The position numbers and the translations under genes are program-made. A DNA stretch of 32,556 nt from an uncultured virus (IMG/VR IMGVR_UViG_3300050343_000142) (lineage: Duplodnaviria; Heunggongvirae; Uroviricota; Caudoviricetes), in IMG/VR virus record IMGVR_UViG_3300050343_000142; one strand, 5' to 3'. Below, one piece after another: positions 341 to 27,865 of the stretch (position 1 is the first letter of the stretch; every line of letters starts with the position of its first letter). Below the pieces are notes generated by a model that worked only from the letters and a program-made list of their open reading frames with translations, had not been told where the DNA came from and ran no database searches.

Positions 341-361
341 AACTGAAAGAGAGGAAGCTAT

Positions 362-1565: not shown

Positions 1566-1580
1566 AAGAAAGGAGGCTTT

Positions 1581-3863: not shown

Positions 3864-3972
3864 GTAGATAGCTAGAGCCCATCTGAAATATGGTGGGCTC
3901 GATGGTATCTATATAGGAAAGGATACTAGGTGAAGTTCATACCTAAAAGTTGAACAATAAGGAGGTACACAA

Positions 3973-5034
3973 TTGTGTATTATAGCTAGTGTTCCAGCAG
4001 GAGCACAAGTAACCAAAGACCAACTATCAGAGATGTGGACACGCAACCCTGATGGTGGTGGTATTGCATATTTCGTCGATGGCGAAATCAAAGTAGAGAA
4101 AGATATGGAACGTGAAAGTTTTATTGACACTGTACTTGAGACGCAGAAGAAATATGGTAATCGAGACATATTAGTACATATGAGAATAGCAACTCATGGT
4201 GCTGTATGCATCGACAATACTCACCCGTTTGAGGTCAACAAGAACACAGTCATGGCACATAATGGTATATTGCCAGAAGCATTTATACCACCAGCTAAGT
4301 CTGCGTTATCTGACACTCGATTCTTCATAGATTACTTTATGAAGTACATTCCAGTGCAGAAATTGGATGACCCTTACTTCCAAGACATGGTTGACGAAAT
4401 GATTAACCAAGGTTACGGAAATAAGTTGGTGTTCTTAACATCTGCTAAGACTAAGTATGACACTTATATCATAGGTGAAAAGCTTGGTGTATGGGATGGA
4501 GGTGTGTGGTTTAGTAACAGCTCTTACGAGAGTAGGAAGTTTGTTAGCTACAACTACCATCGAGGAACAACTCAAACGATAGATGGCGTAACTATCTCAG
4601 ATAATTGCGAAATCTTACCAATAGTTGATGACGTCGACTTAGTAGAAGAAGGCGAAATCAATGACTGGTTGGTTTACCATTCAGACCTGTGGCTACCATT
4701 CCAAGAAGTTGGAGTGCTTGACCACAAGGAAATGAAAGATTCGTTCTGTGTCGAAATGACATGGGACGGTCTTCGTTGTTCTGAGTGTGGTAAGACTGTA
4801 GCTGGTATCTATGAAAGAATGTGCAACTCAGATTGTAAATCAATCGAGCATGTAATTGATTGGGTATATGACAACATCGAAGCATCTGACGAGATGATTG
4901 ATGCAGCTTTGTATTCAGGAATGCTCTACCAAGGTGGAGAACCTGTTACAGACGGTCAGCCTACTTTGTTTGACATGTCTACTAAGACTAAGAAAAAGTC
5001 TAAGAAGAATAAATCAAACAAAAAGTCTAAGTAG
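3973..5034 (+). CDS. Class II (Ntn) glutamine amidotransferase
   Basis: N-terminal Cys (MCIIA), NPDGGG, HMRIATHG, HPF, HNG, SDT motifs. Confidence 0.9.
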   Translation: MCIIASVPAGAQVTKDQLSEMWTRNPDGGGIAYFVDGEIKVEKDMERESFIDTVLETQKKYGNRDILVHMRIATHGAVCIDNTHPFEVNKNTVMAHNGILPEAFIPPAKSALSDTRFFIDYFMKYIPVQKLDDPYFQDMVDEMINQGYGNKLVFLTSAKTKYDTYIIGEKLGVWDGGVWFSNSSYESRKFVSYNYHRGTTQTIDGVTISDNCEILPIVDDVDLVEEGEINDWLVYHSDLWLPFQEVGVLDHKEMKDSFCVEMTWDGLRCSECGKTVAGIYERMCNSDCKSIEHVIDWVYDNIEASDEMIDAALYSGMLYQGGEPVTDGQPTLFDMSTKTKKKSKKNKSNKKSK

Positions 5035-5138
5035 TACTTAGCTTATCGGGGTATCAAGTTTCATGCTTGGTGCCCCGTCAGGTAAGTAAAACGCTTACCC
5101 ATGTAGAAATACATGCCAATACTAAAAGGAGAAAGACT

Positions 5139-5720
5139 ATGAACAAACCAATACCAAAGTTCCTTCATGAAGACCTGAAGAAGCTTATTGGAAAAAGGAA
5201 TCCAACACAAGATGACGTTAGCAAGTTACTTGAGTTGGTGTTCACAACTAAATATCGTTGGACAGAACGTGTTATGCAATACCAAAATGTTCACTATGAG
5301 GCAGAAACTCATGTATCTTTAGAGGATATGCTAGAAGATAGTGGTGAGCTAAGCGACTTAATTGAAGCTTGGCAACGAGGTGATGTAGAAGAATGCACCG
5401 CCATTATTGGTAATGCAGTTGACGTAGCTGAGGACGACTTACATGACAATCGTTGGGACCATTCAGATGAGGTAGATAGAGACTACCTTGATGAAGAGTT
5501 TGAAGATACGATTGACTCAGATGTGGATACGTTCGTAACTACTAGACAACAAGGTACATCCTGGATGGGCGAGCGACTCAGAGACTATCATAGTCATGAG
5601 GGTCAACAGCACTTCTTTACATGGAAAAACATCGTCAATTGGTTCGCCAATAGACGAAGTACTCCTATGAACACGGCTGCTCATGTAAGATACACGAGAC
5701 AGGATGAGGAGACGAACTAA
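5139..5720 (+). CDS. Acidic hypothetical protein
   Basis: TACTAAAAGGAG leader places the start at ATG 5139. Confidence 0.75.
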   Translation: MNKPIPKFLHEDLKKLIGKRNPTQDDVSKLLELVFTTKYRWTERVMQYQNVHYEAETHVSLEDMLEDSGELSDLIEAWQRGDVEECTAIIGNAVDVAEDDLHDNRWDHSDEVDRDYLDEEFEDTIDSDVDTFVTTRQQGTSWMGERLRDYHSHEGQQHFFTWKNIVNWFANRRSTPMNTAAHVRYTRQDEETN

Positions 5721-5834
5721 AGCTAGCTAGTAGCTAACCTCCCTCTACTTAATTGTGGGGGGAGACAGGTGCTAGCACCCGTTAAGTACTACGACGTTAC
5801 TGTAGTGCACATACTAAAAAAAGGAGATACACTT

Positions 5835-6884
5835 ATGTGTAGAGAAGAATGCTATTCTGTAGTTCCCGAACTGCAGTCTTATAGCCATAAGCCAGAAGTC
5901 AAGTACATTGATACTCGATTCATGACCCTAGGTGGTTATGACCCAGGTAATCATACTGTATTTGTTGGTCATCATGCCGATAAAACAGAAGAGTACTTGA
6001 AATCTGCTGTCGATGCTACTGATGGATTCATTCCGATGGGAGTGGAAATAGAAGTAGAACACACATCAGAAACCGACCACGGTATGAGTAGAGGTGAATC
6101 TACAGAGGAAGCTCTGATAGAATTACATGACTACTCACCACACTATATTGACGAGTCAGACTCAAGACTTAGACAATTAATAATTGCTAAGACTGACAGC
6201 TCACTTAGTCATGGTGTGGAGTTCGTAACACAACCTATGACTGTTAGAGCTCATAAGTTGATGAACTGGGAAGCATTGCAGAGTAAAGGCTTTTATGCCT
6301 GGAATGCGAGTACTGCAGGAATGCATGTACATCTTCCTAAGTCATACTTTACGACTACTCAGTTGTGGTTGTTCTTAAAGTTATATCAAAACCTCTGGAC
6401 GTCAGAGAAAGATTACTTTAACTGGCTAGCTGGTAGAGCAGAAAACAGTTGGGCTAAAAGGCAAATGCCTTTCAGAAACTCAGCTGATAACAATCTACTA
6501 GCAGTTGCTTCTACAAAGTGGGACGATAGACGAGACAGATATTCTGCCTTGAACTTCCTCAATGCCTATACAATTGAGTTAAGGTTCTTTCGTTCTAACA
6601 TGAACATCGATGGACTATTAAGTAGACTTGAATTCGTTCAAGCATCTTATGACTTCGTTTGTGTTCTAAGTAGACTCAACAAGAAAGATATGTTCGATGC
6701 TATAAACTTCGGACTATCAAAGCAGTTACATCTGTTTATGATTGGTAACAAATCAGAGTATCCAATCATCTCAGAGAGATTGCTTAATACAAATAAGTTC
6801 GGTGTTACATCTGACTTCGTTAACGAAGACATGGTGATACCATCGTTAATCAATGGGTTAAACCAAGTAAGGAAAGGAGCGTAG
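5835..6884 (+). CDS. Putative amidoligase (Amidoligase_2-like), second paralogue
   Basis: GVEIEVE, DSSLSHGVEFVTQP, AGMHVH, RYSALN, TIELRFF; start at ATG 5835 after AAAGGAG. Confidence 0.85.
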   Translation: MCREECYSVVPELQSYSHKPEVKYIDTRFMTLGGYDPGNHTVFVGHHADKTEEYLKSAVDATDGFIPMGVEIEVEHTSETDHGMSRGESTEEALIELHDYSPHYIDESDSRLRQLIIAKTDSSLSHGVEFVTQPMTVRAHKLMNWEALQSKGFYAWNASTAGMHVHLPKSYFTTTQLWLFLKLYQNLWTSEKDYFNWLAGRAENSWAKRQMPFRNSADNNLLAVASTKWDDRRDRYSALNFLNAYTIELRFFRSNMNIDGLLSRLEFVQASYDFVCVLSRLNKKDMFDAINFGLSKQLHLFMIGNKSEYPIISERLLNTNKFGVTSDFVNEDMVIPSLINGLNQVRKGA

Positions 6885-7030
6885 TGGATACAATACTAAC
6901 TGCTACAATCTGGTTCTTCCTCACTATCGGCTTGGCAGGTGCAATTGCATTCTACCTATCCAAAGACGTCGACATGAGCGACGATTATAGGACTATCTAT
7001 AATTGGTACTCTGACGACGACGAGGAGTAA
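6884..7030 (+). CDS. 48-aa single-pass membrane protein with acidic tail
   Basis: AAAGGAG SD; GTG overlaps upstream TAG; hydrophobic stretch then DDDEE. Confidence 0.65.
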   Translation: MDTILTATIWFFLTIGLAGAIAFYLSKDVDMSDDYRTIYNWYSDDDEE

Positions 7031-7035
7031 CCTAA

Positions 7036-7078
7036 AGCCTGGATGGTCGCATGGAGGGTTCGACTCCCTCCACAGGCT
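7036..7078 (+). ncRNA. Minimal tRNA-like element (acceptor-like stem plus T-arm)
   Basis: AGCCTG/CAGGCT stem with GAGGG-TTCGACT-CCCTC; no D stem or anticodon arm. Confidence 0.55.
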
Positions 7079-7311
7079 CTTTAACCAATAAATTCCAAAC
7101 GTAAAGTTATGGTGGCAGTTTGTTAGGCTGTACATGACTTTAAGTACATGTCTTATAACGGGGGAGAGGTCTGTCCAAACTGGATTTCAACTTTCACCAT
7201 TTTTCACCATCATCCACCATATTTCAGCTTGCTTCCTATCTTGACGTCCAATATCTGAAGGTTATATATTTAGTTAAATAGTCCTAAGATGGAACTAAAG
7301 ATATTATCCGA

Positions 7312-7381
7312 AAATCCCGTGTTTTTTTATCACTCATCAATAGGGTAAATCCCGTAAAAATAAAGCACACATCAATAGGGT
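7312..7381. repeat. Two imperfect 35-bp tandem repeats
   Basis: AAATCCCGT-n14-CATCAATAGGGT twice. Confidence 0.75.
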
Positions 7382-7706
7382 TTGATGACGAGATTTCTCT
7401 TCCACGCTTCCCTGGGAGAGTAAACGGCTTCTCTTGTTAATAAATCTAATAAGGGAACGCACGAATTGGGAGAGGTGCGTCCAAAATGAAATTCGACCTC
7501 GTTTTTGACATCAAACCACTACATATAGTATGTTTTCCGTGATGTCGAAACTCGCTCCGAACCTGCCATTCTGTGTTTCCACAATGTATTAAGATGTAGA
7601 TAAATCTATTAAGAGATAGCGAAGCGTCCTGCAGAAGACGGCGATTCTGGGTACATCAAGTCAATGTTTATAGGCTTTTAAAAGGAATCTCAGATGGGTT
7701 ACTGCG

Positions 7707-8060
7707 TTAGCGTATGTACCAATCTCCACTTTCAATAACAGGATAACCACGATTAAACTGAAAAACATAAGCAATTGCAGTCGTGTCGTCCTCTAAATAA
7801 ATTTCTTCATCCATATAAAGATAAGGAACACCCTCAATGGTATCTAATGCTTTCTTGGTTAAATCGTCTATTTCCCATAATTCTCCCTGTATTTCTTGAA
7901 TACCCTCTTTACACAGAGCTGGGAACATTCCGACATCAACCAATGTATATAAAGGTTTTGTCTTAATATCTTTAATATATTTAGCGTCTAAGTTGTCGGA
8001 TAACATAAAAGAACGGCTATCGCCTTTTCTCAATGTTCCATATACAAATATCTTAATCAT
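7707..8060 (-). CDS. Gamma-glutamylcyclotransferase (AIG2/GGACT family)
   Basis: IFVYGTLRKG, FPAL, GELWEI, LDTIEG motifs. Confidence 0.92.
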   Translation of the reverse strand: MIKIFVYGTLRKGDSRSFMLSDNLDAKYIKDIKTKPLYTLVDVGMFPALCKEGIQEIQGELWEIDDLTKKALDTIEGVPYLYMDEEIYLEDDTTAIAYVFQFNRGYPVIESGDWYIR

Positions 8061-8185
8061 TCAGTTTCCTTTCAAAGTAAGACACAAAGTCGTCATTTAA
8101 ACTCCATATCTTAATAATCCTTACAACGTTGTCCAAGTACCTATATACTTTTCTCGTCATAGCTATTCTAATTTTCTCAATCATG

Positions 8186-8262
8186 TGGACGTGGAGGGAA
8201 TCGAACCCTCGTTACCTAATACAATGTACACCATACAAGTTTAAGTCTATCCATTCACGCCC
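8186..8262 (-). ncRNA. tmRNA-like tRNA domain without an mRNA-like domain (77 nt)
   Basis: Acceptor GGGCGTG/CACGTCC with G3-U70 and A73; stemless D-loop AATGGATAGAC; T-arm GAGGG-TTCGATT-CCCTC. Confidence 0.65.
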
Positions 8263-8267
8263 TAGTT

Positions 8268-8831
8268 TTACTTAACAAAGACTCCTGTTCGTAAAAACTC
8301 TTGTCTTTCTGCGTTAAAATCCCACTTAGGTTTGTGTTCTTGCTCTCGTTCCCATGACAACTTATTAGCTGATATCCTATCATATTCACGAAAAGCTAAT
8401 TCAAAGTTATCAATAGTAGACAAAGTCATATTTCTAAAGTCTCTATTTTTCCAATAACGTAAACTTTCTCCGACAGTATGGTCTTTTTTCATCATCGCTT
8501 TAGATAAATCAACGATACTGCACTTTCTTTTAACAATAGCTTCGTTAATGTAAGTTGGGTCAAGTAAAAATTCTAAGTCATCAGTAGTAATGAAGTTAGG
8601 ATATTTATCGGGTGCAAGTCTTTGATAATCACGTAAAGCATCGCTAATTGCTTTATAAGTTTGATACTTAGGAATTCTTTTTTTGGACTTCACACTACGG
8701 ATATAGCCACTTTTAACACCAATAGACTTTTCAAATCTACCAATAAGTATTCCATGTTCTACGTCTACAAACTTTTGAAAGACAGACCACAGTCTATCTC
8801 TTTTGATAATTCTTGTTCTCCTCAACATCAT
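8268..8831 (-). CDS. Putative DNA-binding protein, possibly two XRE-like HTH domains
   Basis: GGAGG SD; two helical segments resembling HTH domains (weak). Confidence 0.5.
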   Translation of the reverse strand: MMLRRTRIIKRDRLWSVFQKFVDVEHGILIGRFEKSIGVKSGYIRSVKSKKRIPKYQTYKAISDALRDYQRLAPDKYPNFITTDDLEFLLDPTYINEAIVKRKCSIVDLSKAMMKKDHTVGESLRYWKNRDFRNMTLSTIDNFELAFREYDRISANKLSWEREQEHKPKWDFNAERQEFLRTGVFVK

Positions 8832-8849
8832 CCCCTCCAAAATTTTCTA

Positions 8850-8916
8850 AAAACGGACGGATAGAAAATTCCTAGGAAGAAAGGAGGCAAAAAACCTAGG
8901 CGAAACCTACCCGTCC
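8850..8916 (-). ncRNA. Stem-loop displaying an anti-SD loop UUUUUUGCCUCCUUUCUU
   Basis: GGACGGGTAG/CTATCCGTCC outer stem (G-U pair on minus strand), CCTAGG/CCTAGG inner stem, followed by a U-tract. Confidence 0.55.
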
Positions 8917-8954
8917 TAAACCTATGGCTTAATTTTACCAACAACATCTGAAAT

Positions 8955-9182
8955 CTACTGTATTTCATCCGTCTGTTCTTTCTTAAATCTCAAGTTATCG
9001 ACAACAACGTTGATTTTACTAGCTATTCTCTCAGCTATTTTACTTTGGACTTCTAAGTTCCACAGTTCTTCCTCAGCATTATATTGTTCAATATCTTTCC
9101 TAATAGAATCAACGAGAAGTTGATTAATTTCCACAACCAACTCCTCAACTTTTTGATTCGCCACCTTTTTCTCCTCTTTCAT
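8955..9182 (-). CDS. Hypothetical coiled-coil protein
   Basis: Operon position; overlapping start/stop. Confidence 0.7.
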   Translation of the reverse strand: MKEEKKVANQKVEELVVEINQLLVDSIRKDIEQYNAEEELWNLEVQSKIAERIASKINVVVDNLRFKKEQTDEIQ

Positions 9183-9427
9183 CTAAATTTTTTCTGTTTC
9201 CACAAAGGTACTAACTTATTGTCATGTCCAACATGCCAATCATCACACCAAGGGCAATCATACGCTTTTGCTTTAGCCTGCCGACGTCTTGGGTTGTTGT
9301 TCATCGTAATAGCTATTTCTTGTGCTTTGCTTTGCGACAATGCTTTTTTTCGACGACACCCATAACATTTCGGACATTGACATTTGCTCCCGTTGACCTC
9401 GTACCAACATACCTTATTCGTCTTCAC
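9179..9427 (-). CDS. Small Zn-binding protein (YDCPWCDDWH)
   Basis: Cys/His motifs; operon coupling. Confidence 0.7.
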   Translation of the reverse strand: MKTNKVCWYEVNGSKCQCPKCYGCRRKKALSQSKAQEIAITMNNNPRRRQAKAKAYDCPWCDDWHVGHDNKLVPLWKQKKFR

Positions 9428-9875
9428 TTGCAGTAGTAGGAACTGTTTTTTCGAGTTGTTTGTCTAAAAAGTATTCAGACTTACCCTCAAACTGTGACCA
9501 TAGATGTAATCCTACACCAATAGCCATAGCACATCTTTTAATTGCGTCGGATACTGCGTCTTTTAATCTCGCACCATCAGTTCTCCAATTAGTAGGGTTC
9601 TCGACATCGCCTGCTTCCTCTACAGTTACAATGTTACCGTCAATTTCAACAGTTAAAGCAAGTACACAACCTGTAATGATTGATTTGTAGTTGCCGTCTT
9701 TGTCTTTGACGTCCTCTCGTATAATTTCTTTTACCTCTTGTGAATAAGCACCGAGTACACTAAGTAGTCGTTGTCTTATAACAGAGTGTTGTATGTAGTC
9801 GCCAAATTTACCTTTAGGAGCTTTATGTATAAACTCCTTTGGAAATGGTCTTGATAGTTCGTGTAATTGTTCCAC
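9414..9875 (-). CDS. Rad52/Rad22-like single-strand annealing protein
   Basis: LSRPFP, YI..RQRL..VLG, KDAVSDAIKRCAMAIGVGLHLW. Confidence 0.85.
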   Translation of the reverse strand: MEQLHELSRPFPKEFIHKAPKGKFGDYIQHSVIRQRLLSVLGAYSQEVKEIIREDVKDKDGNYKSIITGCVLALTVEIDGNIVTVEEAGDVENPTNWRTDGARLKDAVSDAIKRCAMAIGVGLHLWSQFEGKSEYFLDKQLEKTVPTTASEDE

Positions 9876-9901
9876 TTTTTCCTCCTGTTAGTTAATTAAT
9901 T

Positions 9902-10873
9902 CTATTTCTCGTTAGCCCAATTGTCAAGTTCGCTTGCAGTTCTCATCTTTTGTTGCAATGTACTTAACTCATTAGGGGATAGTCTAGGCGATACTTTATC
10001 TAAAGACGCCCAATGTTTCGCTAATGATGTCGGAGTTGCTTTGAAGCCAAAGTTAAGCAAATGGTTTTTTGCTCTAATTGGAATATCATTCAAGTCAACA
10101 TCAATATCATTAAGTTCTTTTACTGCTTTGTTTAACTGACCTCTAGCCATTGAAGTAAGTTGGTTCATATCATAACCTAAAGCAATACAGATTGTTTTAA
10201 AAATCTGTTTATGTCTTTGTCCCATGTCCTCGACAATAACTTCCCAATCATTCAAAACTAATTCATTTCCAACTTCATTTACTGCAACTTCGTTGCTAAT
10301 AATCTTGTCTTCTCTTGTCTTGTCTTCTCTTGTCTTGTCTACGTCGGACGGGCTATGGACATCCTTTGGACGTCCTGTGGACACGTTCTTATCAAATTTA
10401 TTAAGGTTGATGACCTCGTATTCAATAGGTTTTTCGGGGCTTTGTTCTATTTCAGCCTCGCTAGTCCACTCTCTTGTGTCGCCATTACTCTTAGCAAATT
10501 TATTAGCAGACGTTTTTGAGTTTGCTCTTTGCCTAGATTGACGTTTTCTCTCTGCGTCCTTTTGTCTGATTTCAATAAGAGCACCTGTGTATTCAACCCA
10601 ATCATGAATTGTTAACTTACCGTCATTTTCATCAATCCAACCATGTTTAATTAATGCTTTGGTAAAGTCTTCTGGCTCTCCCTCCCATTGTGCAGAAAAA
10701 GGCACAAAGTCTTTGTATCGTGTAATGTCGCCGTTCTCAGCATAATCTACTGCCCACCACCAAAATAGGTGCAAATGCCCTATTGCTTGTGGGATAGTTA
10801 TACCAAGTTCATTGGCTACTAATTTTAATTTAGGGTGTTGCCCTAACGCTTGTTCTGATTTAATCCAAGCCAT
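9902..10873 (-). CDS. Phage replication initiator (replisome organiser-like)
   Basis: MAWIK..HPK..GHLHLFWWWA, IHDWVEY, DAERKRQSR, DKTRED linker repeats. Confidence 0.75.
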   Translation of the reverse strand: MAWIKSEQALGQHPKLKLVANELGITIPQAIGHLHLFWWWAVDYAENGDITRYKDFVPFSAQWEGEPEDFTKALIKHGWIDENDGKLTIHDWVEYTGALIEIRQKDAERKRQSRQRANSKTSANKFAKSNGDTREWTSEAEIEQSPEKPIEYEVINLNKFDKNVSTGRPKDVHSPSDVDKTREDKTREDKIISNEVAVNEVGNELVLNDWEVIVEDMGQRHKQIFKTICIALGYDMNQLTSMARGQLNKAVKELNDIDVDLNDIPIRAKNHLLNFGFKATPTSLAKHWASLDKVSPRLSPNELSTLQQKMRTASELDNWANEK

Positions 10874-11294
10874 TCTTTATCTCCTGTTCTTTGTTGGTAT
10901 TCCACATGTCTTGTAGTTTATCAACTATGTCGTTTAATGTCGATAATCTACATAAAAATAGTCCGTCGCCACTTCCGTGGGGCATAGCTATCATGCTAAA
11001 AGGTTTGTCGTCAATCCCTTTTCCTATAGCATAATCATAACTTTGCGATTCTGCAAGTTCAAACTTTTTTACAATGTCAGCTACTTGCTTACCCGACTTC
11101 ACTTCAAATCTTACAGGACTATTCCAATGTTCTTCATCACTTGATTTAGTTAATTCGTTGTCGGGTACTCCAAGTAATTTCTTTGCTCTATCCTGTGAGG
11201 CTCTACCCTCAACACGATTAGTTTGATTTTGTTCTTGTACAAGTTTTTTCTTTAACTCATTAAGTCTTGTTTGTATCTCATCATCAAACGTCAT
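10860..11294 (-). CDS. PD-(D/E)xK nuclease-like protein
   Basis: FEVKSG motif; resolvase-like size. Confidence 0.45.
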   Translation of the reverse strand: MTFDDEIQTRLNELKKKLVQEQNQTNRVEGRASQDRAKKLLGVPDNELTKSSDEEHWNSPVRFEVKSGKQVADIVKKFELAESQSYDYAIGKGIDDKPFSMIAMPHGSGDGLFLCRLSTLNDIVDKLQDMWNTNKEQEIKNGLD

Positions 11295-11673
11295 AGGTTC
11301 TACGACCCTCTAGTAAAGCGAAAAATGTTTTTTCGTCCATACAATAAACTACAGGCTCTCCATCAGCTGAACGTCTTTGCTGACCTTTTTGTTTCTTTAA
11401 CTTCTTCCAAGCAACTACTACAGGGTACTTACCTGCTTTTCTTTTTGCTTTGGCAACTGTTTGATGTAAGTTAAGTGCTTGTCTATTCTTTGCTTCCATG
11501 ACCCAACGTTCGCTAGGTAACATGTAATCAACTCTGAAAAACTCGACATCTCCCTCGTCTTTGTTACCACCCTCAGCTAAACGTCTTGCTTTGTGGTGCC
11601 CATTATATTTATTAATAAGATTGACTTGTAGTGTTTCAAATGTTGTGCCCTGTTTCTTAGGTTTGTTAACCAT
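11284..11673 (-). CDS. Holliday junction resolvase-like PD-(D/E)xK nuclease
   Basis: KKQGTTFE, DEGDV, VMEAKN, PVVVAWK. Confidence 0.75.
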   Translation of the reverse strand: MVNKPKKQGTTFETLQVNLINKYNGHHKARRLAEGGNKDEGDVEFFRVDYMLPSERWVMEAKNRQALNLHQTVAKAKRKAGKYPVVVAWKKLKKQKGQQRRSADGEPVVYCMDEKTFFALLEGRRTYDV

Positions 11674-12131
11674 TATTTTCTCCTGTTCAAAGCCTCCAAC
11701 TTAAACAAAGTAAAAGACTCGTCTTCTTTCTTAGGCTTTTCTAGTTCTAACCAAACTAAATATTGTGGTGTGTATTCATAAGTATGAGTTATAAATCTAA
11801 CTACTTGTTCTACAGTAGTTAATATTTCTGCGTCTGAGAGTGCTTTAGCAAACTCTCCAACTTCAATCCAATCTGATTTGAACTGTTTAGTTCTTTCAGT
11901 AAGAATATGTTCTTGTTCTTGCTTTGCTAATGTTTCAAAGTAGTCCTCTGTTGCACTCATCAAAGCGTTTGTAATAAAAGCACCGAAGTCCATATCTGTA
12001 TTGTCGTCCATATCGTGTTGGGGACAAGCAGGGTGGCACTCCATGTTAGGTGGTGCAGAACATATTGGGCATGTTTCTAGTCTGTTGTCATCAAACCCAC
12101 TTGGGTCTATTGGATACATACTCATACACAA
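11673..12131 (-). CDS. Hypothetical protein with Cys-rich N-terminus
   Basis: CPIC..CHPAC; coupled to downstream gene. Confidence 0.7.
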   Translation of the reverse strand: MCMSMYPIDPSGFDDNRLETCPICSAPPNMECHPACPQHDMDDNTDMDFGAFITNALMSATEDYFETLAKQEQEHILTERTKQFKSDWIEVGEFAKALSDAEILTTVEQVVRFITHTYEYTPQYLVWLELEKPKKEDESFTLFKLEALNRRK

Positions 12132-12166
12132 ATTCTACTTCAATATATAAAGTTAGGTTGTATTAA

Positions 12167-12874
12167 CTAAAAAGGATTTTCTGAATCCTGTAATTCTTTA
12201 CCTGATACTGAGACCCCTTCAATCTTTTCGACATCACTAACAGTTCTATAGAGCGAATCATCTAGTTCTTCCCACTCTTGTTTTATTATTCTGCCGTCTT
12301 CGTTGAAAGTAGCACTACCCTTATCTCCATTTTCCATACTAAAAAATCTATAAATAATTTTCTTTACATCATATTCTCTAGCAATTTTTTCAATCATAGG
12401 ATAAGCAGGTGCCCATGCAGTATCAAAAGTATATTCTAAAGATTCTTTATCTCTATTAATCATTCGAGTTTCACAATCTCCCCACTTTGTGCCGTAGTTA
12501 TTTACGTTCCAATTGTACCAATCGTGAGCACCATACTTCTCATCTAGCTCTTCAAGTTCCTTACCTGTAAGTGTTTCCATTGTGTAACCCTCTCCAAGTA
12601 ATTCCTCATCATTCATGCTATAGAATGTTACTGCTCTCATTTGGTCTATCTTTACTGAGTTTCCGTCTAAGTCTTTAAAACGTCTTATATTTGTTTCTGT
12701 GCCGTCCAACATACGAATTTCGTCGGGCATTGGAATTAAGTTTGTAGCAATAAGGTGTCTTTCTTGCTGATTTCCGTCCTCATCAGTAAAAGTTGTTCTA
12801 ACTTTGTTTTGTATTTCATCTAACACAGTTGCGTCAGCTTCAATAGTTATCTTGTTCTCTACCCAATTAGGCAT
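12167..12874 (-). CDS. DUF1281/Api92-like ferredoxin-fold protein
   Basis: MPNWVENKI, WYNWNVNNYGTKW, FDTAWAP; GGAGGAG SD. Confidence 0.8.
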   Translation of the reverse strand: MPNWVENKITIEADATVLDEIQNKVRTTFTDEDGNQQERHLIATNLIPMPDEIRMLDGTETNIRRFKDLDGNSVKIDQMRAVTFYSMNDEELLGEGYTMETLTGKELEELDEKYGAHDWYNWNVNNYGTKWGDCETRMINRDKESLEYTFDTAWAPAYPMIEKIAREYDVKKIIYRFFSMENGDKGSATFNEDGRIIKQEWEELDDSLYRTVSDVEKIEGVSVSGKELQDSENPF

Positions 12875-13100
12875 AATCTCCTCCGTCCACACTCATACGA
12901 GCGTTATATTCTTGGTTATCTGTATATCTGTCGTGTTCGTCCATAGCCTCTACTGAGTAGGGACTATAACCATTTGCTTTTGTAAAAGACCATACATAAA
13001 TTTTATGCCACACTTTGTACATTTTCTTTTGAAACAATGTGTTTCTTTTGTCTAGCCTTTCTAAAGCAAGTAATGATTTGTTGTAAATGTATTTACTCAT
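12867..13100 (-). CDS. Hypothetical protein
   Basis: Operon coupling. Confidence 0.65.
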   Translation of the reverse strand: MSKYIYNKSLLALERLDKRNTLFQKKMYKVWHKIYVWSFTKANGYSPYSVEAMDEHDRYTDNQEYNARMSVDGGDYA

Positions 13101-13569: not shown

Positions 13570-13836
13570 TTACTCCTGTTCTCTGTTGTTAGTTAAGTCG
13601 TCAGCATACTTCGTTCCAAGTATTCTGTCAATTTCTGTCTGTTCTTTTATCATATCGTCTAAAAAAGAATTTTCTCTACGTTTTTCTTTCTCCCAAGCTC
13701 TGAGTTCAAATATAAATATTACTCTCTCATAAAGCTCTTTTAACTTATCTTTCACTTTTCCATTTCCTTTCCCAACTATCTGAATCTTCCCAACACCATT
13801 GACTTGATGACCAATCTCTCCATTGCGTCCTTCCAT
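13570..13836 (-). CDS. Hypothetical protein (start uncertain)
   Basis: Fills the operon between neighbouring genes. Confidence 0.5.
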   Translation of the reverse strand: MEGRNGEIGHQVNGVGKIQIVGKGNGKVKDKLKELYERVIFIFELRAWEKEKRRENSFLDDMIKEQTEIDRILGTKYADDLTNNREQE

Positions 13837-14281
13837 AAATGTCCTCGGCTAGTATTGAGGCAAATAGTATATTGTAATAAGGCGTATATTGAACTCTCGT
13901 TTGTTCAAATCCAATATTGTGTTTATATGTTTTACCATTAAATTCGTATGGTTTACCCCAACGGAGTATTACCCACTCATCCCACATCGGTAAGTCATAG
14001 GTTTCTGCAACCCAATCCCATGTCCATGGTACGAATTGCATGACACCTGTGTCTTTGTTGTCAGTTCTGTGAGCGTTTGATTTACCTCTTGACTCACACC
14101 AACCAATACGAATAGCAGTATCAATATTATTTTTGTCGAAGTGTTCGACATAAAGTTCTGAATATACCTGCATAGATTGAGGTACATGGTCATTACAATT
14201 TAAATGTTGTTCTATAATTTTAGATTCATCTACACCCATAGGTATAACAGACGCTAAAAAAATTATACATTCTGTAATCAT
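13745..14281 (-). CDS. Lytic transglycosylase (SLT/lysozyme-like) with hydrophobic N-terminus
   Basis: IGWCESRG catalytic Glu motif, GVMQF, TW. Confidence 0.75.
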   Translation of the reverse strand: MITECIIFLASVIPMGVDESKIIEQHLNCNDHVPQSMQVYSELYVEHFDKNNIDTAIRIGWCESRGKSNAHRTDNKDTGVMQFVPWTWDWVAETYDLPMWDEWVILRWGKPYEFNGKTYKHNIGFEQTRVQYTPYYNILFASILAEDIYGRTQWRDWSSSQWCWEDSDSWERKWKSER

Positions 14282-14361
14282 ATTAAACTCCTTAACTTAT
14301 TGGTTGTAAAAAAGGGTAAAGGAATCCCAAGCAAAAGTCAACCTTATAACTAATTATTTAC

Positions 14362-14607
14362 TTAGTACTGTAAATCGTCTATTAGTTCAGCAGTATCTTT
14401 GCCAAGTATGAGTTGTCTAGCATGTATTGAGGCTTGTGATTGTGTCTTACCACCTGTTTTGGTAACAAGCCACTTTCCTCTACCCGAAATCTTATAGATT
14501 TCAGCGTCATATTCAAGTAACAAAGGGTTGAATTTAACAACCACTTCATATTGGTCGAATAAAAACGACACATCTTCGACAGTATTTGTGTTAGTTTGTA
14601 CTCTCAT
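14362..14607 (-). CDS. Hypothetical protein, first gene of leftward operon
   Basis: ORF just downstream of predicted promoter. Confidence 0.6.
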   Translation of the reverse strand: MRVQTNTNTVEDVSFLFDQYEVVVKFNPLLLEYDAEIYKISGRGKWLVTKTGGKTQSQASIHARQLILGKDTAELIDDLQY

Positions 14608-14614
14608 CTACCTT

Positions 14615-14652
14615 AATTATACCATTATCAAATATTATTATAAGTATTTCAA
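14615..14652 (-). promoter_or_regulatory. Leftward sigma70-type promoter
   Basis: TTGAAA-17-GATAAT, plus TGGTATAAT extended -10. Confidence 0.55.
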
Positions 14653-14685
14653 TTTCATTCTTTTAAAAAAAGTGTATTGATAAAC

Positions 14686-14714
14686 TTGACAGATAAATCT
14701 ATTAAGACTATCTT
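14686..14714 (+). promoter_or_regulatory. Rightward sigma70-type promoter with operator-like motif in the spacer
   Basis: TTGACA-17-TATCTT. Confidence 0.7.
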
Positions 14715-14756
14715 GGTATTAATGATGTAACAAAGTCAGAGTGTAAATAGCACAAC

Positions 14757-15651
14757 CAACACTCACAACGGCGTAGAAACTTCAGAAGTGCTAAGGGATA
14801 ACACGGAAACCCTTAGGAATCTCACAGAGATAGTATTGGTTGCTATTCCTACGCAAGTGGGGGTAGCTTGAAAGATTTAGTAATGGTTGGTGGCTCATTA
14901 CCACCTAGACACGAAACAACTAATTGCAGACCACGTTAATTGAGTCTTTCAAGCTATCATAAGATAGTATTTCCTATATTAATTGTTATTACTCTGTTTG
15001 GGTGTGATTGCACGACTTAAATGCGTGGCATTGAAATAATATGCAAATCTCTGACGACCACATGCAAACAGGGTGGTAGCTTGAAGCTAATAGGGTTTTT
15101 ATGGTGTTTTGTTTTTACAGGTTTTTCATAGTCCTGTTCCTTTTATTAGGCACCACGATTTTACTTGTTGGCTTCAAGCTACTTCTATCGAGTAGCAAAA
15201 TACAACAAGCTATTGATTGTAAGTTTAAGGTTGGAAGTCTAGTGCAGAAATGTTAGCTAGAAATAAAGTGCATATAAACAGATTATTTCCAAGTTTGCAC
15301 CACTTACTGTTGTAGCAAAGTTATCTACAAATTAAATACAGTACCCTGTATTCACAATGTAGGTAGCTTGTAATACATTTCATATAAAGAAACTTATTGG
15401 ATAAGTTTTGATGTGTGTTACAAGCTATCTATAAGTGCAAAACGACTAAATATTGAAATATATTTGATACCCAATGGGGAGAGTTAGCACTAGTAAGTAG
15501 GTAGCTTATAGCACATGCCGATGTGAGAAAAGCACGCAAGTGTTCAATACGCAAGTGTTGATGAAAAGCAAAGCCGAGCGTGTGTTATAAGCTACACGTA
15601 CGTAGCCACGAATATGTTGTGAGTGTTGATGGGACAGTTGACGCTCACAAC
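14757..15651 (+). ncRNA. Large structured non-coding RNA or sRNA-array candidate
   Basis: 13-bp perfect closing helix 14757-14769/15616-15628; four 18-20-bp GGTAGCTT stems; no credible ORF. Confidence 0.7.
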
Positions 15652-15679
15652 TAAAAAAAATCAACAAATGGAGGAACAA

Positions 15680-15931
15680 ATGACAAATAAAACAGGATAT
15701 GAATATATCGTAACCGAACAAACATTAGACATAAGAAACTATACAGTAAAAAGTGATGTCCAACTTTCTCAATCAGAAATTTATGACGTCTTTTACGAAG
15801 TAGATTATGTTGACGGAAGTACTAATACTTTTGAGATTAATGGTAAAAAAGGAACTGTTACCTTTGATGGAACTGATTTCGGAGATGACGGACAGTTAGA
15901 TATTGAGGGCGACGAGAGGATAGATGAATAA
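15680..15931 (+). CDS. Acidic hypothetical protein
   Basis: GGAGG SD before ATG 15680. Confidence 0.7.
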   Translation: MTNKTGYEYIVTEQTLDIRNYTVKSDVQLSQSEIYDVFYEVDYVDGSTNTFEINGKKGTVTFDGTDFGDDGQLDIEGDERIDE

Positions 15932-16188
15932 TGAAAGTAAAAGACATGATAGCCATGCTTGAACTAGCCGATAAGGATAGTGAAGTAATGTTAGAAGTTC
16001 GAGATAAAGACATAAATCTTATTGGTTACTTTGAAGTGGGAAGTGATTGGGCAGAATATGGTGGTTATAGTCCCGATGAACTTGACTACTTTGAAAGTAT
16101 TAATGAGCCAAAAAGTAAAGCTAATGTTGAACTCACTATCAATAATGATGAGTGGGTAACACTTGGTATAGACATGGAGGAAAAATAA
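15931..16188 (+). CDS. Acidic hypothetical protein
   Basis: TAATG coupling. Confidence 0.7.
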   Translation: MKVKDMIAMLELADKDSEVMLEVRDKDINLIGYFEVGSDWAEYGGYSPDELDYFESINEPKSKANVELTINNDEWVTLGIDMEEK

Positions 16189-23990: not shown

Positions 23991-24650
23991 TTAAAACCTA
24001 ATGATTGTGGTACATACGCTAACGCAGTAACCCATCTGAGATTCCTTTTAAAAGCCTATAAACATTGACTTGATGTACCCAGAATCGCCGTCTTCTGCAG
24101 GACGCTTCGCTATCTCTTAATAGATTTATCTACATCTTAATGCATTGTGGAAACACAGAATGGCAGGTTCGGAGCGAGTTTCGACATCACGGAAAACATA
24201 CTATATGTAGTGGTTTGATGTCAAAAACGAGGTCGAATTTCATTTTGGACGCACCTCTCCCAATTCGTGCGTTCCCTTATTAGATTTATTAACAAGAGAA
24301 GCCGTTTACTCTCCCAGGGAAGCGTGGAAGAGAAATCTCGTCATCAAACCCTATTGATGTGTGCTTTATTTTTACGGGATTTACCCTATTGATGAGTGAT
24401 AAAAAAACACGGGATTTTCGGATAATATCTTTAGTTCCATCTTAGGACTATTTAACTAAATATATAACCTTCAGATATTGGACGTCAAGATAGGAAGCAA
24501 GCTGAAATATGGTGGATGATGGTGAAAAATGGTGAAAGTTGAAATCCAGTTTGGACAGACCTCTCCCCCGTTATAAGACATGTACTTAAAGTCATGTACA
24601 GCCTAACAAACTGCCACCATAACTTTACGTTTGGAATTTATTGGTTAAAG

Positions 24651-24693
24651 AGCCTGTGGAGGGAGTCGAACCCTCCATGCGACCATCCAGGCT
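24651..24693 (-). ncRNA. Minimal tRNA-like element (IR copy)
   Basis: Mirror of 7036..7078. Confidence 0.55.
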
Positions 24694-24698
24694 TTAGG

Positions 24699-24845
24699 TT
24701 ACTCCTCGTCGTCGTCAGAGTACCAATTATAGATAGTCCTATAATCGTCGCTCATGTCGACGTCTTTGGATAGGTAGAATGCAATTGCACCTGCCAAGCC
24801 GATAGTGAGGAAGAACCAGATTGTAGCAGTTAGTATTGTATCCAC
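24699..24845 (-). CDS. Small membrane protein (IR copy)
   Basis: Mirror of 6884..7030. Confidence 0.65.
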   Translation of the reverse strand: MDTILTATIWFFLTIGLAGAIAFYLSKDVDMSDDYRTIYNWYSDDDEE

Positions 24846-25894
24846 TACGCTCCTTTCCTTACTTGGTTTAACCCATTGATTAACGATGGTATCACCATGT
24901 CTTCGTTAACGAAGTCAGATGTAACACCGAACTTATTTGTATTAAGCAATCTCTCTGAGATGATTGGATACTCTGATTTGTTACCAATCATAAACAGATG
25001 TAACTGCTTTGATAGTCCGAAGTTTATAGCATCGAACATATCTTTCTTGTTGAGTCTACTTAGAACACAAACGAAGTCATAAGATGCTTGAACGAATTCA
25101 AGTCTACTTAATAGTCCATCGATGTTCATGTTAGAACGAAAGAACCTTAACTCAATTGTATAGGCATTGAGGAAGTTCAAGGCAGAATATCTGTCTCGTC
25201 TATCGTCCCACTTTGTAGAAGCAACTGCTAGTAGATTGTTATCAGCTGAGTTTCTGAAAGGCATTTGCCTTTTAGCCCAACTGTTTTCTGCTCTACCAGC
25301 TAGCCAGTTAAAGTAATCTTTCTCTGACGTCCAGAGGTTTTGATATAACTTTAAGAACAACCACAACTGAGTAGTCGTAAAGTATGACTTAGGAAGATGT
25401 ACATGCATTCCTGCAGTACTCGCATTCCAGGCATAAAAGCCTTTACTCTGCAATGCTTCCCAGTTCATCAACTTATGAGCTCTAACAGTCATAGGTTGTG
25501 TTACGAACTCCACACCATGACTAAGTGAGCTGTCAGTCTTAGCAATTATTAATTGTCTAAGTCTTGAGTCTGACTCGTCAATATAGTGTGGTGAGTAGTC
25601 ATGTAATTCTATCAGAGCTTCCTCTGTAGATTCACCTCTACTCATACCGTGGTCGGTTTCTGATGTGTGTTCTACTTCTATTTCCACTCCCATCGGAATG
25701 AATCCATCAGTAGCATCGACAGCAGATTTCAAGTACTCTTCTGTTTTATCGGCATGATGACCAACAAATACAGTATGATTACCTGGGTCATAACCACCTA
25801 GGGTCATGAATCGAGTATCAATGTACTTGACTTCTGGCTTATGGCTATAAGACTGCAGTTCGGGAACTACAGAATAGCATTCTTCTCTACACAT
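24845..25894 (-). CDS. Putative amidoligase (IR copy)
   Basis: Same protein as 5835..6884. Confidence 0.85.
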   Translation of the reverse strand: MCREECYSVVPELQSYSHKPEVKYIDTRFMTLGGYDPGNHTVFVGHHADKTEEYLKSAVDATDGFIPMGVEIEVEHTSETDHGMSRGESTEEALIELHDYSPHYIDESDSRLRQLIIAKTDSSLSHGVEFVTQPMTVRAHKLMNWEALQSKGFYAWNASTAGMHVHLPKSYFTTTQLWLFLKLYQNLWTSEKDYFNWLAGRAENSWAKRQMPFRNSADNNLLAVASTKWDDRRDRYSALNFLNAYTIELRFFRSNMNIDGLLSRLEFVQASYDFVCVLSRLNKKDMFDAINFGLSKQLHLFMIGNKSEYPIISERLLNTNKFGVTSDFVNEDMVIPSLINGLNQVRKGA

Positions 25895-26008
25895 AAGTGT
25901 ATCTCCTTTTTTTAGTATGTGCACTACAGTAACGTCGTAGTACTTAACGGGTGCTAGCACCTGTCTCCCCCCACAATTAAGTAGAGGGAGGTTAGCTACT
26001 AGCTAGCT

Positions 26009-26590
26009 TTAGTTCGTCTCCTCATCCTGTCTCGTGTATCTTACATGAGCAGCCGTGTTCATAGGAGTACTTCGTCTATTGGCGAACCAATTGACGATGT
26101 TTTTCCATGTAAAGAAGTGCTGTTGACCCTCATGACTATGATAGTCTCTGAGTCGCTCGCCCATCCATGATGAACCTTGTTGTCTAGTAGTTACGAACGT
26201 ATCCACATCTGAGTCAATCGTATCTTCAAACTCTTCATCAAGGTAGTCTCTATCTACCTCATCTGAATGGTCCCAACGATTGTCATGTAAGTCGTCCTCA
26301 GCTACGTCAACTGCATTACCAATAATGGCGGTGCATTCTTCTACATCACCTCGTTGCCAAGCATCAATTAAGTCGCTTAGCTCACCACTATCTTCTAGCA
26401 TATCCTCTAAAGATACATGAGTTTCTGCCTCATAGTGAACATTTTGGTATTGCATAACACGTTCTGTCCAACGATATTTAGTTGTGAACACCAACTCAAG
26501 TAACTTGCTAACGTCATCTTGTGTTGGATTCCTTTTTCCAATAAGCTTCTTCAGGTCTTCATGAAGGAACTTTGGTATTGGTTTGTTCAT
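26009..26590 (-). CDS. Acidic hypothetical protein (IR copy; E>D and T>S changes)
   Basis: Mirror of 5139..5720. Confidence 0.75.
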   Translation of the reverse strand: MNKPIPKFLHEDLKKLIGKRNPTQDDVSKLLELVFTTKYRWTERVMQYQNVHYEAETHVSLEDMLEDSGELSDLIDAWQRGDVEECTAIIGNAVDVAEDDLHDNRWDHSDEVDRDYLDEEFEDTIDSDVDTFVTTRQQGSSWMGERLRDYHSHEGQQHFFTWKNIVNWFANRRSTPMNTAAHVRYTRQDEETN

Positions 26591-26694
26591 AGTCTTTCTC
26601 CTTTTAGTATTGGCATGTATTTCTACATGGGTAAGCGTTTTACTTACCTGACGGGGCACCAAGCATGAAACTTGATACCCCGATAAGCTAAGTA

Positions 26695-27756: not shown

Positions 27757-27865
27757 TTGTGTACCTCCTTATTGTTCAACTTTTAGGTATGAACTTCACC
27801 TAGTATCCTTTCCTATATAGATACCATCGAGCCCACCATATTTCAGATGGGCTCTAGCTATCTAC

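Follow-up and report, generated by a model that had tools for sequence, protein, structure and literature searches.

Where the early genes of this marine phage begin, 0.9 kb without genes consists of separately folding RNA cassettes in a row rather than one giant RNA, and it belongs to a family that is widespread in uncultured phages. The window, by which we mean the whole 32,556-nt stretch analysed (IMG/VR record IMGVR_UViG_3300050343_000142), carries four modules between positions 14757 and 15651. Each is formed by a clamp, a long stem of conserved sequence, that encloses a cargo, and other domains and linkers lie between them. The features of the region and its surroundings are as follows.

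14686–14714 (+): sigma-70-like promoter TTGACA-17-TATCTT, 10 of 12 matches; candidate start of the rightward early transcript
14757–14769 (+): 5' arm of a perfect 13-bp complement (3' arm 15616–15628); in the centroid fold, not in the MFE fold
14771–14854 (+): leader domain closed by GCGTAG/CTACGC; −23.9 kcal/mol, z −1.9 (weak)
14842–14868 (+): alternative 11-bp hairpin with GCAA loop; −16.7 kcal/mol, z −4.6
14859–14961 (+): module 1, clamp with class-0 cargo
14985–15080 (+): domain closed by its own stem, ACUCUGUUUG/CAAACAGGGU; −35.5 kcal/mol, z −4.9 (strong)
15072–15186 (+): module 2, clamp with U-rich cargo; singleton cargo class, none like it elsewhere
15214–15311 (+): linker-type element GUAAGU...ACUUAC, conserved in six other loci
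15310–15351 (+): two small hairpins, read from the sequence and the MFE fold
15359–15432 (+): module 3, near-consensus arms (GUAGGUAGCUUGUAAUACAU / ..UGUGUGUUACAAGCUAUCUAU) with a small cargo; 98.7% identical to locus L099
15433–15496 (+): linker common to other arrays
15497–15600 (+): module 4, clamp with a cargo common to loci L022 and L089
15616–15651 (+): strong local hairpin just 5' of the first gene; −20.5 kcal/mol, z −6.4
15670–15931 (+): Shine-Dalgarno GGAGG (15670–15674) and first rightward gene (ATG 15680, 83 aa)

The original prediction that 14757–15651 contains no credible ORF was upheld. Two ORFs were computed within the array (15101–15256, plus strand, 51 aa; 15506–15721, minus strand, 71 aa), and in one relative that is 90–95% identical the first of these is hit by indels of −1, +3, −1 and −2. 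The plus strand of the region folds at −295.1 kcal/mol (z −8.9) and the minus strand at −242.9 kcal/mol (z −7.1), with 0 of 20 shuffles as stable in either case. The expected preference of G·U pairs for the plus strand was seen in the window and also across the family. The predicted TTGACA-17-TATCTT promoter is present, but promoter-like sites are no more numerous in the region than chance would give (7 found versus 6.8 expected from shuffles), and we therefore treat it as a lead only. Two terminator-like sites were found in 14300–16000, both belonging to one palindrome at 14526–14542, outside the array. The 83-aa product of the first rightward gene matched no known family.

The four stems, with their shared base GGTAGCTT/AAGCTAY, lie where they had been placed, each with 18–20 paired positions counted from the TAGCT core. 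All six exact matches to GTAGCTTRWA in the window fall within them, as do 8 of the 15 matches when one mismatch is allowed. In module 1, the cargo comprises a helix (P2), a 5-bp hairpin (P3) whose 7-nt loop reads CUCAUUA, and a single-stranded stretch that is invariant, ACGAAACAAC..GCAGACC. Just upstream, the alternative hairpin at 14842–14868 is made by GCUAUUCCUAC, a segment resembling a 3' arm, together with the 5' arm of module 1. This arrangement parallels the unpartnered 3' arm that opens 62 of 92 arrays.

Separate domains between the stems had also been proposed, and here the outcome was mixed: 14985–15080 is strong, but the leader domain is weak (and has no match among the other loci) and 15205–15315 folds no better than shuffles (z −0.15), though its sequence is conserved. 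The linker-type element within this last segment has matches of 83–94% in L099, L024, L028, L140, L079 and L060; a seven-sequence alignment including the window showed long invariant stretches and no covariation. In other phages the element sits exactly between two clamped modules. Of the two hairpins that follow it, UUGUAG..CUACAA resembles the remnant of an empty clamp, and AUACAG-UACC-CUGUAU has a C-rich turn; both recall hairpins with C-rich loops found upstream of arrays. Further on, 15412–15516 matches L145 at 86% and L120 at 83%.

Homologues, whose collection had been proposed together with the prediction, were reached through the DNA motif and not through synteny. They proved numerous, and their pairing covaries. 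A first motif scan of IMG/VR gave 13 stretches and a second at least 121 in phage contigs. A scan of 136 sources (the window and 135 loci) yielded 250 modules, 187 of them unique. The clamp consensus is 5'-GUAGGUAGCUUGUAGCACAUAG ... YUGUGUGUUACAAGCUAUCUAU-3', a 22-bp helix whose pairing spans positions 11–32 (185 unique modules). Inner positions 22–24 and 26–29, which the search patterns left free, form Watson-Crick or G·U pairs in 183–185 of these 185 modules while switching among GC, AT, TA and CG. More broadly, the non-wobble positions 12–14, 16–24 and 26–29 pair in 176–185 of 185. The outer 11 bp were partly fixed by the search patterns, a bias that is lessened, not removed, by 66 modules chosen by neither strict pattern, which have the same pairing and wobbles. 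Four wobbles are fixed (G·U at 11, 15 and 25; U·G at 30), on the gene-sense strand only, and all 250 modules form 1–7 extra pairs on one strand. In a two-module array the long clamps are present in the MFE structure. Units measure 60–148 nt between TAGCT cores (median 84 nt); the 3' flank consensus of the clamp is A-rich, and no U-tract follows the stem.

That each stem encloses an unrelated insert, as was noted for the window, holds for the family as a whole: the 187 unique modules carry inserts of 35–110 nt, structured, that fall into 93 sequence classes, several of them structured themselves, so that at least 93 kinds of cargo exist. Class 0, which includes module 1 of the window, has 12 unique homologues. 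In their alignment 97.8% of cells are paired, versus 33–49% when the partners are slid; both sides have changed in 11 of 30 pairs (a value reached by 1 of 500 shuffles), and the covariation score is 0.358 versus 0.129 (0 of 500 shuffles). A motif common to all cargos was sought, and there was no universal box, with modest enrichment of A-rich words only. Some cargos hold a T-arm-like GGTTCRAATCC hairpin.

Cargos are not tied to one clamp or one position. The same cargo is combined with differing inner-clamp variants; the cargo of the window's 14985–15080 domain is found within GGTAGCTT-type clamps of other phages (14999–15052 matches L087, L088 and L111 at 91–96%), and the module 4 cargo occupies a linker position in L044 and L057. 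Overall, 12 of 67 linkers carry cargos that are clamped elsewhere. One conserved linker consists of a hairpin with a GCCCUGUUG loop flanked by conserved single strands, AGUARGAG and YRACUGAAMG; across its 38 unique copies, all four stem pairs show compensatory changes and 96.4% of cells are paired. In contigs of close relatives from run X15, position 14957 is joined to 15525 and 15432 to 15549, and module content therefore differs even among close relatives.

Loci hold one to five modules in combinations that vary across phages, with a single orientation in all 59 multi-module loci. The modules are mostly intergenic (148 of 177) and lie on the strand of the neighbouring genes (downstream gene, 81 of 86; upstream gene, 77 of 90). 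Fourteen of 16 near-complete phage records have one array locus per genome, and a control with the reversed pattern gave 0; the array-bearing phages are roughly 40 kb in size. A Shine-Dalgarno sequence and start codon follow the last clamp within 40 nt in 40 of 81 arrays, and mini-hairpins GCUAU..AUAGC follow many last clamps, adjoining the ribosome-binding site. Of 65 non-last modules, 1 is separated from the next module by an ORF that reaches 40 aa or more and has a Shine-Dalgarno sequence.

Comparisons with databases set the family apart from described RNAs. Rfam 15 gave no match at gathering score for the whole window or 20 related loci (108 kb), in agreement with the earlier remark that the region was not recognised as GOLLD or ROOL; at relaxed E-values the hits were to miRNA, snoRNA and sRNA models, far below their gathering scores. 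ARAGORN detected no tRNA or tmRNA gene in the window or 24 loci. Keyword searches of the literature found no description of the family, and string searches for the arm sequences returned unrelated matches only, such as PCR primers. The region had no blastn match among 50,697 GenBank phages; the nearest record, G001, covers window positions 1–12673 and an inverted right arm, not the array. Nor was there a blastn match to the region in 15 loci related through the 178-aa protein encoded at 13745–14281, in which GTAGCTT/AAGCTAY matches are scattered and a gap of more than 350 nt occurs in one locus only.

The phage that carries the array is a common one in marine waters: 14 DNA runs, drawn from 10 coded studies, contain at least 95% of the words sampled from the stretch, and 6 of the 14 are marked as possible sources of this DNA. 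Among 185,579 species genomes there was a single match, in a contig of a MAG labelled Actinomycetota. This contig has no host flank, because it is a longer-than-unit-length copy of phage record G009 (99.5–99.9% identical at both ends). Relatives of the DUF932 protein are mostly from actinophages, a weak hint of an actinobacterial host. In RNA libraries, contigs of X15 show an array depth similar to that of the flanking genes, with DNA carry-over possible, and those of X16, X19 and X20 (depth 2–6) cover the flanking genes and not 14.6–15.65 kb; as these data are assembled contigs, neither presence nor absence of a transcript follows from the coverage.

The explanation we favour, with confidence that is evenly balanced, is that the array is an early-leader polycistron of clamped small RNAs, in which the clamp is at once a processing signal for a host double-strand RNase and an insulating signal. 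The region would form the 5' leader to the rightward early operon, transcribed within the early transcript from the promoter-like site at 14686–14714. The clamp would be the element by which all cassettes are recognised and processed, in all likelihood through cleavage by a host RNase III-type enzyme; at the least, it might protect the ends while the A-rich linkers are cut. Cargos would thereby be set free, or made stable, as separate small RNAs, leaving the downstream message with a defined, insulated 5' end. Because its sequence is shared, the clamp may also serve as a recombination handle through which phages could swap, gain and lose cassettes. That the cargos are trans-acting decoys or regulators for host takeover is a guess.

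On the gene strand, the 22-bp clamp is predicted to make a double-stranded RNA helix of about two turns, as expected of an RNase III-type processing site. A polycistronic precursor of several sRNAs cut by RNase III was one of two readings originally proposed; the anatomy fits such a precursor, and the cutting itself stays conjectural. Since a search of 21 phage records revealed no RNase III encoded by the phages themselves, a host enzyme is assumed. The sequence conservation of the clamp exceeds the needs of RNase III, and could equally point to a sequence-specific protein. A simple model in which the insert is cut out is insufficient, because it leaves the orphan 3' arms and the cargo-bearing linkers unexplained.

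A broader reading, which we put forward tentatively as possible but doubtful, takes the array as a universal RNA 'socket' of abundant marine phages: one sequence-conserved clamp with two mutually exclusive pairing registers, on which a large library of structured small RNAs, fast in exchange, is mounted for use against the host. The arms would alternate in the order a'-X-a-X-a'..., with complementary arms on either side of each cargo, be it 'insert' or 'linker'. The library RNAs might be aptamer-, decoy- or ribozyme-like, some mimicking tRNA arms, and might be brought to bear on host functions or defences during the opening minutes of infection. The clamp would then combine the roles of processing signal, folding chaperone and recombination handle.

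It is also conceivable, if unlikely, that the array forms a scaffold-plus-cargo ribonucleoprotein, in which the clamp and the purine-rich linker flanks bind a sequence-specific phage or host protein, cutting is secondary, and the variable cargo gives specificity as guide, decoy or aptamer. Such binding could account for a clamp conserved in sequence besides pairing, with fixed wobble positions, for the conserved single strands flanking the linker hairpin, and for invariant unpaired stretches within cargos, such as that of class 0. The protein partner that this reading calls for did not appear as a constant neighbour: the commonest downstream clusters (an AAA_5 ATPase and unknowns) occur in 20–35 of 93 loci at most and none beside the window's array, and the Nop domain (PF01798) was found in 0 of 21 records, with a control positive in four archaea. 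Structured cargos of 35–110 nt are unlike short guides, and the conserved class-0 stretch has no complement in the window besides the site itself.

We consider it distinctly improbable that the array is a purely cis-acting leader, in which early messages have their 5' ends insulated or stabilised by the clamps, or the next gene has its translation tuned by them, and in which the inserts are passengers with no role of their own. The placement of modules within operons on the gene strand, the half of arrays that end close before a Shine-Dalgarno sequence and start codon, and the mini-hairpins beside the ribosome-binding site are all as such a leader would have them. Passengers, however, would not be expected to be conserved between phages with compensatory changes and invariant loops, nor would as many as five cassettes follow one another directly, uninterrupted by genes, as do the four modules and other domains that fill 0.9 kb in the window.

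The other reading originally proposed, one new structured RNA of ~870 nt that the 13-bp helix would close, much as in GOLLD or ROOL, is disfavoured and now seems very unlikely. The 13-bp complement is indeed perfect, and the region as a whole is very stable; but the helix is missing from the MFE structure and appears only in the centroid fold, and the local hairpin at 15616–15651, which includes its 3' arm, competes with it. The closing arms have no homologue in other loci, the modules are found elsewhere alone or in differing numbers and combinations, and Rfam holds no match.

A DNA-level element, in the form of single-stranded DNA hairpins or recombination sites (integron attC-like, invertible segments or MITE-like repeats), is highly improbable: the arms are inverted repeats, module content varies among relatives and DNA hairpins tolerate G·T pairs too, but each genome has one locus rather than dispersed copies, no insert occurs in opposite orientation (0 minus-strand versus 412 plus-strand matches between different modules), wobble strand and gene strand coincide in 81 of 86 cases, and the non-coding inserts, like the linkers, have pairing that covaries as in RNA. 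A template array of a UG27-type reverse transcriptase or a TIGR-type guide array, both of them phage-borne arrays of repeated, sequence-diverse RNA units (bioRxiv 10.64898/2026.09.22.753630; PMC12045711), is hardly credible, and we exclude both because the 21 phage records (16 at least 90% complete) contain neither a Nop protein nor a reverse transcriptase (RVT_1, PF00078; control positive in three known genomes), the 40 window ORFs likewise lack RVT_1, and unit size and layout are unlike either system.

The family represents dozens of conserved small structured RNAs in one recognisable frame, which makes it easy to detect them, produce them and put them to the test. If the clamp does serve as a processing and insulating signal, nature would have its own counterpart to the RNA scaffolds and insulators engineered in synthetic biology; cargos acting as decoys or regulators would add a layer of RNA to the conflict of phage and host in uncultured marine systems. 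Should the socket reading be true, the array would be an RNA counterpart of accessory-gene cassettes.

Among known systems, identity with integron cassettes and their attC sites was rejected, as no integrase is present in the PHROG annotation of the complete record G013 or among the window ORFs and the inserts are non-coding. Invertible segments of the shufflon or Gin/Hin type were rejected on the orientation of the matches between modules.

The early polycistronic mRNA of phage T7 is processed by RNase III at the hairpins R0.3–R1.3, which are simple hairpins of ~50–60 nt between cistrons. Like these, the modules are look-alike sense-strand hairpins in non-coding positions of a phage early operon, where cutting by a host double-strand RNase may, by analogy, define message ends. 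Unlike them, they have a 22-bp clamp of conserved sequence and 35–110-nt cargos of at least 93 kinds, in tandem units without intervening genes. In bacterial rrn operons, leader-trailer processing stalks surround the 16S and 23S rRNAs; there, as by analogy in the array, a flanking helix of ~20 bp or more clamps a structured, stable RNA and releases it from a polycistronic precursor. The array differs in that its cargos are small and interchangeable and one clamp sequence serves all cargos in many phages.

UG27 arrays are ncRNA arrays of prophage reverse transcriptases, with units of ~135–167 nt that keep short motifs, contain an asymmetric internal loop and a pseudoknot, and need the reverse transcriptase and two accessory proteins (Li et al., bioRxiv 10.64898/2026.09.22.753630). 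They share with the present family phage-borne arrays of variable length, sequence-diverse structured units and the gain or loss of single units between relatives; the present arrays differ in a stem sequence that is strongly conserved and in the lack of a reverse transcriptase in the 21 phage records. TIGR arrays, which lie next to genes for Nop-domain Tas proteins, have in each unit two spacers of 8–12 nt with box C/D motifs flanking them (Faure et al. 2025, PMC12045711). They too are tandem stem-loop units in phage genomes, and their transcription is followed by processing to small RNAs; by comparison, the inserts here are 35–110 nt, structured and without a common motif or Nop-domain neighbour. 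Finally, the PeSL cassettes of T4-type phages pair a promoter with a terminator stem-loop, and small genes are flanked by them (Arbiol et al. 2010, PMC2839356). Unlike PeSLs, the clamp has an A-rich 3' flank without a U-tract, encloses non-coding RNA and pairs at long range across the cargo; like them, it would be a short conserved regulatory repeat of early or hyperplastic regions, in which shared sequence may mediate modular shuffling between phages.

Window positions 14608–15679 separate a block of leftward genes, extending up to 14607 on the minus strand, from the first rightward gene, and GC skew changes sign over the same interval.

Features of the array region
14686–14714: promoter-like site
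14757–14769 with 15616–15628: 13-bp complementary segments
14859–14961, plus strand: module 1, a stem-closed RNA unit
15072–15186, plus strand: module 2
15359–15432, plus strand: module 3
15497–15600, plus strand: module 4
15616–15651: local hairpin
15670 and 15680, plus strand: GGAGG and ATG of the first rightward gene

The four proposed stems with the shared base GGTAGCTT.../...AAGCTAY are present. GTAGCTTRWA occurs six times without mismatch in the 32.5-kb window, each time as an arm of one of these four hairpins. Folding of 14740–15660 gave −295.1 kcal/mol for the plus strand (z −8.9; 0/20 shuffles as good) and −242.9 kcal/mol for the minus strand (z −7.1). The 13-bp helix thought to close the array has a perfect complement, but the minimum free energy fold prefers the strong local hairpin at 15616–15651 (−20.5 kcal/mol, z −6.4). 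A promoter-like sequence is present at 14686–14714, but sites of this kind are no commoner here than in shuffles. The view that the region holds no credible ORF stood: the sole sense ORF (15101–15256, 51 aa) is out of frame in a 90–95% identical relative, with indels of −1, +3, −1 and −2, and judged by this broken frame is probably not coding. Its product would be a hydrophobic peptide starting within module 2 with AGGG ahead; a mechanical ORF of 71 aa lies on the minus strand at 15506–15721. The 10-mer CNCTCACAAC brackets the array in three copies, two direct and one inverted (14760–14769, 15616–15625 and 15642–15651), an arrangement that may represent a group of operators acting on the early promoter region or may underlie alternative pairings.

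The region is absent from GenBank phages, from the nearest phage record (G001) and from all 15 loci reached via a neighbouring protein. By contrast, an IMG/VR scan with the shared arms and a variable gap found 13 loci, and the longer consensus that these provided recovered at least 121 stretches in a second scan. When the window and 135 loci (L-numbers) were scanned for TAGCT...AGCTA with at least 13 pairs, 250 modules (187 unique) were found, and 148/177 modules were intergenic. The strict pattern matched 14 of 16 complete phage records, with one to three modules each, and the reversed-pattern control matched nothing; with one module locus per genome, dispersed repeats were rejected. In one phage (G013) the locus sits ~3 kb inside the rightward early/replication operon. 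Across 185,579 species genomes the longer consensus gave a single match, on a contig from an Actinomycetota-labelled MAG (G023:C36, locus L031). This 54-kb contig is a longer-than-unit-length copy of a 43.9-kb phage record (G009), and both its ends map at 99.5–99.9% to the same G009 region; a prophage with host flanks was thus rejected in favour of a phage concatemer binned into the MAG.

Two other observations concern the surroundings of the array. A 241-aa protein, with a domain like DUF1281_C, is encoded in the opposite direction at a distance of 2 kb (12167–12892, minus); in 18 further loci, members of its cluster are found immediately upstream of arrays and share the arrays' strand. The window also carries a 7.7-kb inverted repeat (1–7721 and 24008–31729; 100% complementary, with a one-base offset at 2730/28999). 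G001 is colinear through the left arrangement of this repeat, so the right arm may be an assembly artefact (a fold-back chimera) and not a genuine terminal repeat.

Across 185 unique modules, the conserved stem (the clamp) spans 22 positions, four of them wobble pairs.

Wobble pairs kept among 185 unique modules and, in brackets, among 66 modules outside both strict patterns
Position 11, G.U: 165/185 (49/66)
Position 15, G.U: 159/185 (44/66)
Position 25, G.U: 129/185 (31/66)
Position 30, U.G: 158/185 (56/66)

The 66 modules also share the outer sequence. Inner positions 22–24 and 26–29, which no search pattern constrained, are Watson-Crick or G.U in 183–185/185 modules while alternating between GC, AT, TA and CG. 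Covariation among homologues, which the original prediction called for, is thus seen in the inner clamp, and also in one cargo class and a linker described below. Because of its wobble pairs the clamp is strand-specific, and the preference of G-U pairs for the plus strand, first noted in the window, proved family-wide, with 1–7 extra pairs on one strand in 250/250 modules. As an independent check, the favoured strand was the one encoding the next gene in 81/86 cases and the previous gene in 77/90, and 59/59 multi-module loci had a single orientation.

The enclosed inserts (cargos) are unrelated, as had been supposed: sequence comparison sorted the 187 unique inserts into 93 classes, and no motif common to all 187 was found. 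Module 1 of the window belongs to the largest class (class 0, 12 unique members), module 2 is a singleton, module 3 matches locus L099 at 98.7%, and the cargo of module 4 is common to L022 and L089. One and the same cargo was seen within different inner-clamp variants. Contigs of close relatives from sequencing run X15 contain the joins 14957→15525 and 15432→15549; those strains therefore differ in module content. The class-0 consensus fold combines the clamp with two 5-bp elements, helix P2 and hairpin P3 (7-nt loop YUCAUWA), and with an unpaired stretch that does not vary, ACGAAACAAC..GCAGACC. Under this fold 97.8% of cells are paired, versus 33–49% with partners slid; 11/30 pairs changed on both sides, a figure reached by 1/500 shuffles, and the covariation score was 0.358 versus 0.129 ± 0.017. 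The P3 hairpin (14898–14914 in module 1, and its class-0 relatives) resembles an anticodon arm with anticodon CAU in shape, and L030 has a different hairpin in its place. Another cargo class, of 134–148 nt, carries a T-arm-like hairpin, GTAGGTTCAAATCCTAC.

Members of the T-arm-like cargo class
L044:3190–3323
L058:2807–2954
L066:3140–3287
L110:180–327

Of these, L044 was scanned with ARAGORN and relaxed Rfam, and neither found a tRNA or tmRNA there.

Modules are separated by a median of 47 nt. The commonest linker (38 unique copies) comprises AGUARGAG, a 4–6-bp hairpin with GCCCUGUUG in its loop, and YRACUGAAMG. All four of its stem pairs show compensatory change, 96.4% of cells are paired versus 24–50% when slid, and its covariation score was exceeded by 0/500 shuffles. 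The motif was seen across L018–L152 (e.g., L086:3088–3152) and, within clamps, as cargo in L031–L033; its paired flanks place AGUA opposite GAA, a candidate loop-E/bulged-G signature. The window domains other than the GGTAGCTT modules are likewise parts shared with other loci: 14999–15052 recurs in L087, L088 and L111, there within a GGTAGCTT-type clamp, and 15214–15311 has counterparts in six loci, three of which carry it precisely between two modules.

An unpartnered 3' arm (GCTAYYTAY) lies within 110 nt upstream of arrays in 62/92 unique cases, against a background of 0/606 windows, and no 5' arm was found in these 110 nt. Its window counterpart is GCUAUUCCUAC-GCAA-GUGGGGGUAGC at 14842–14868 (−16.7 kcal/mol, z −4.6). 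This orphan arm can pair with the 5' arm of the first module, giving a second, mutually exclusive folding register. Since 3' and 5' arms are complementary in either order, linkers are also bracketed by pairing partners, and 12/67 unique linkers have a cargo that is clamped elsewhere; in a two-module array the long clamps win thermodynamically. Downstream, 40/81 unique arrays have a Shine-Dalgarno sequence and start codon no more than 40 nt beyond the last clamp, often directly after it; in the window this gap measures 80 nt and contains the 15616–15651 hairpin. ATAGC follows many last 3' arms (e.g., L024, L030, L067 and L035), forming a 5-bp mini-hairpin, GCUAU..AUAGC, directly ahead of the ribosome-binding site; this hairpin would compete with outer clamp pairs.

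Taken together, these data demonstrate a 22-bp RNA clamp that is strand-specific, covaries and is conserved in sequence, and that encloses interchangeable structured cargos, in tandem in early leaders. No Rfam family matched the window or 20 related loci, in agreement with the original view that this is neither GOLLD nor ROOL, no tRNA genes were detected in the window or in 24 loci, and searches by arm sequence or keyword found no description of the clamp family in the literature covered. Terminators were rejected, the clamp flanks being A-rich and lacking a U-tract, as was invertible DNA (412 plus-strand versus 0 minus-strand cargo matches). A UG27 array was rejected on the absence of a reverse transcriptase from 21/21 phage records (16 of them ≥90% complete) and from 40 window ORFs, and TIGR on the absence of a Nop domain from 21/21 records; the TIGR unit layout is also unlike that of the clamped arrays.

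The window's phage is frequently found in DNA runs from seawater. Contigs from the X15 RNA library cover the whole stretch at similar depth, with DNA carry-over possible, and in assembled contigs from three low-depth RNA libraries only the flanking genes are covered. The array would be transcribed together with the early operon, and its clamps may act as processing and insulating signals, releasing separate small RNAs and giving the following message a defined 5' end, a reading to which we give an even chance. That the clamp is instead a handle for a sequence-specific protein seems unlikely, and a leader device acting purely in cis somewhat more so. Under the processing and insulating reading, the shared arms could double as handles for recombinational cassette exchange; the phage encodes a Rad52/Erf-type annealing protein (9414–9875). 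A bolder reading is that of a general RNA 'socket' into which small functional RNAs from a swappable library would be fitted.

The processing and insulating reading is suggested by the form of the clamp and by likeness to known systems. Two-turn double-stranded RNA, which the clamp would provide, is a classical RNase III substrate; none of the 21 phage records carries an RNase III gene. The clamp brackets RNAs as the rrn stalks do around stable RNAs, and the clamped array sits in an early operon, like the T7 sites. We would file the clamped arrays with phage early-transcript processing helices.
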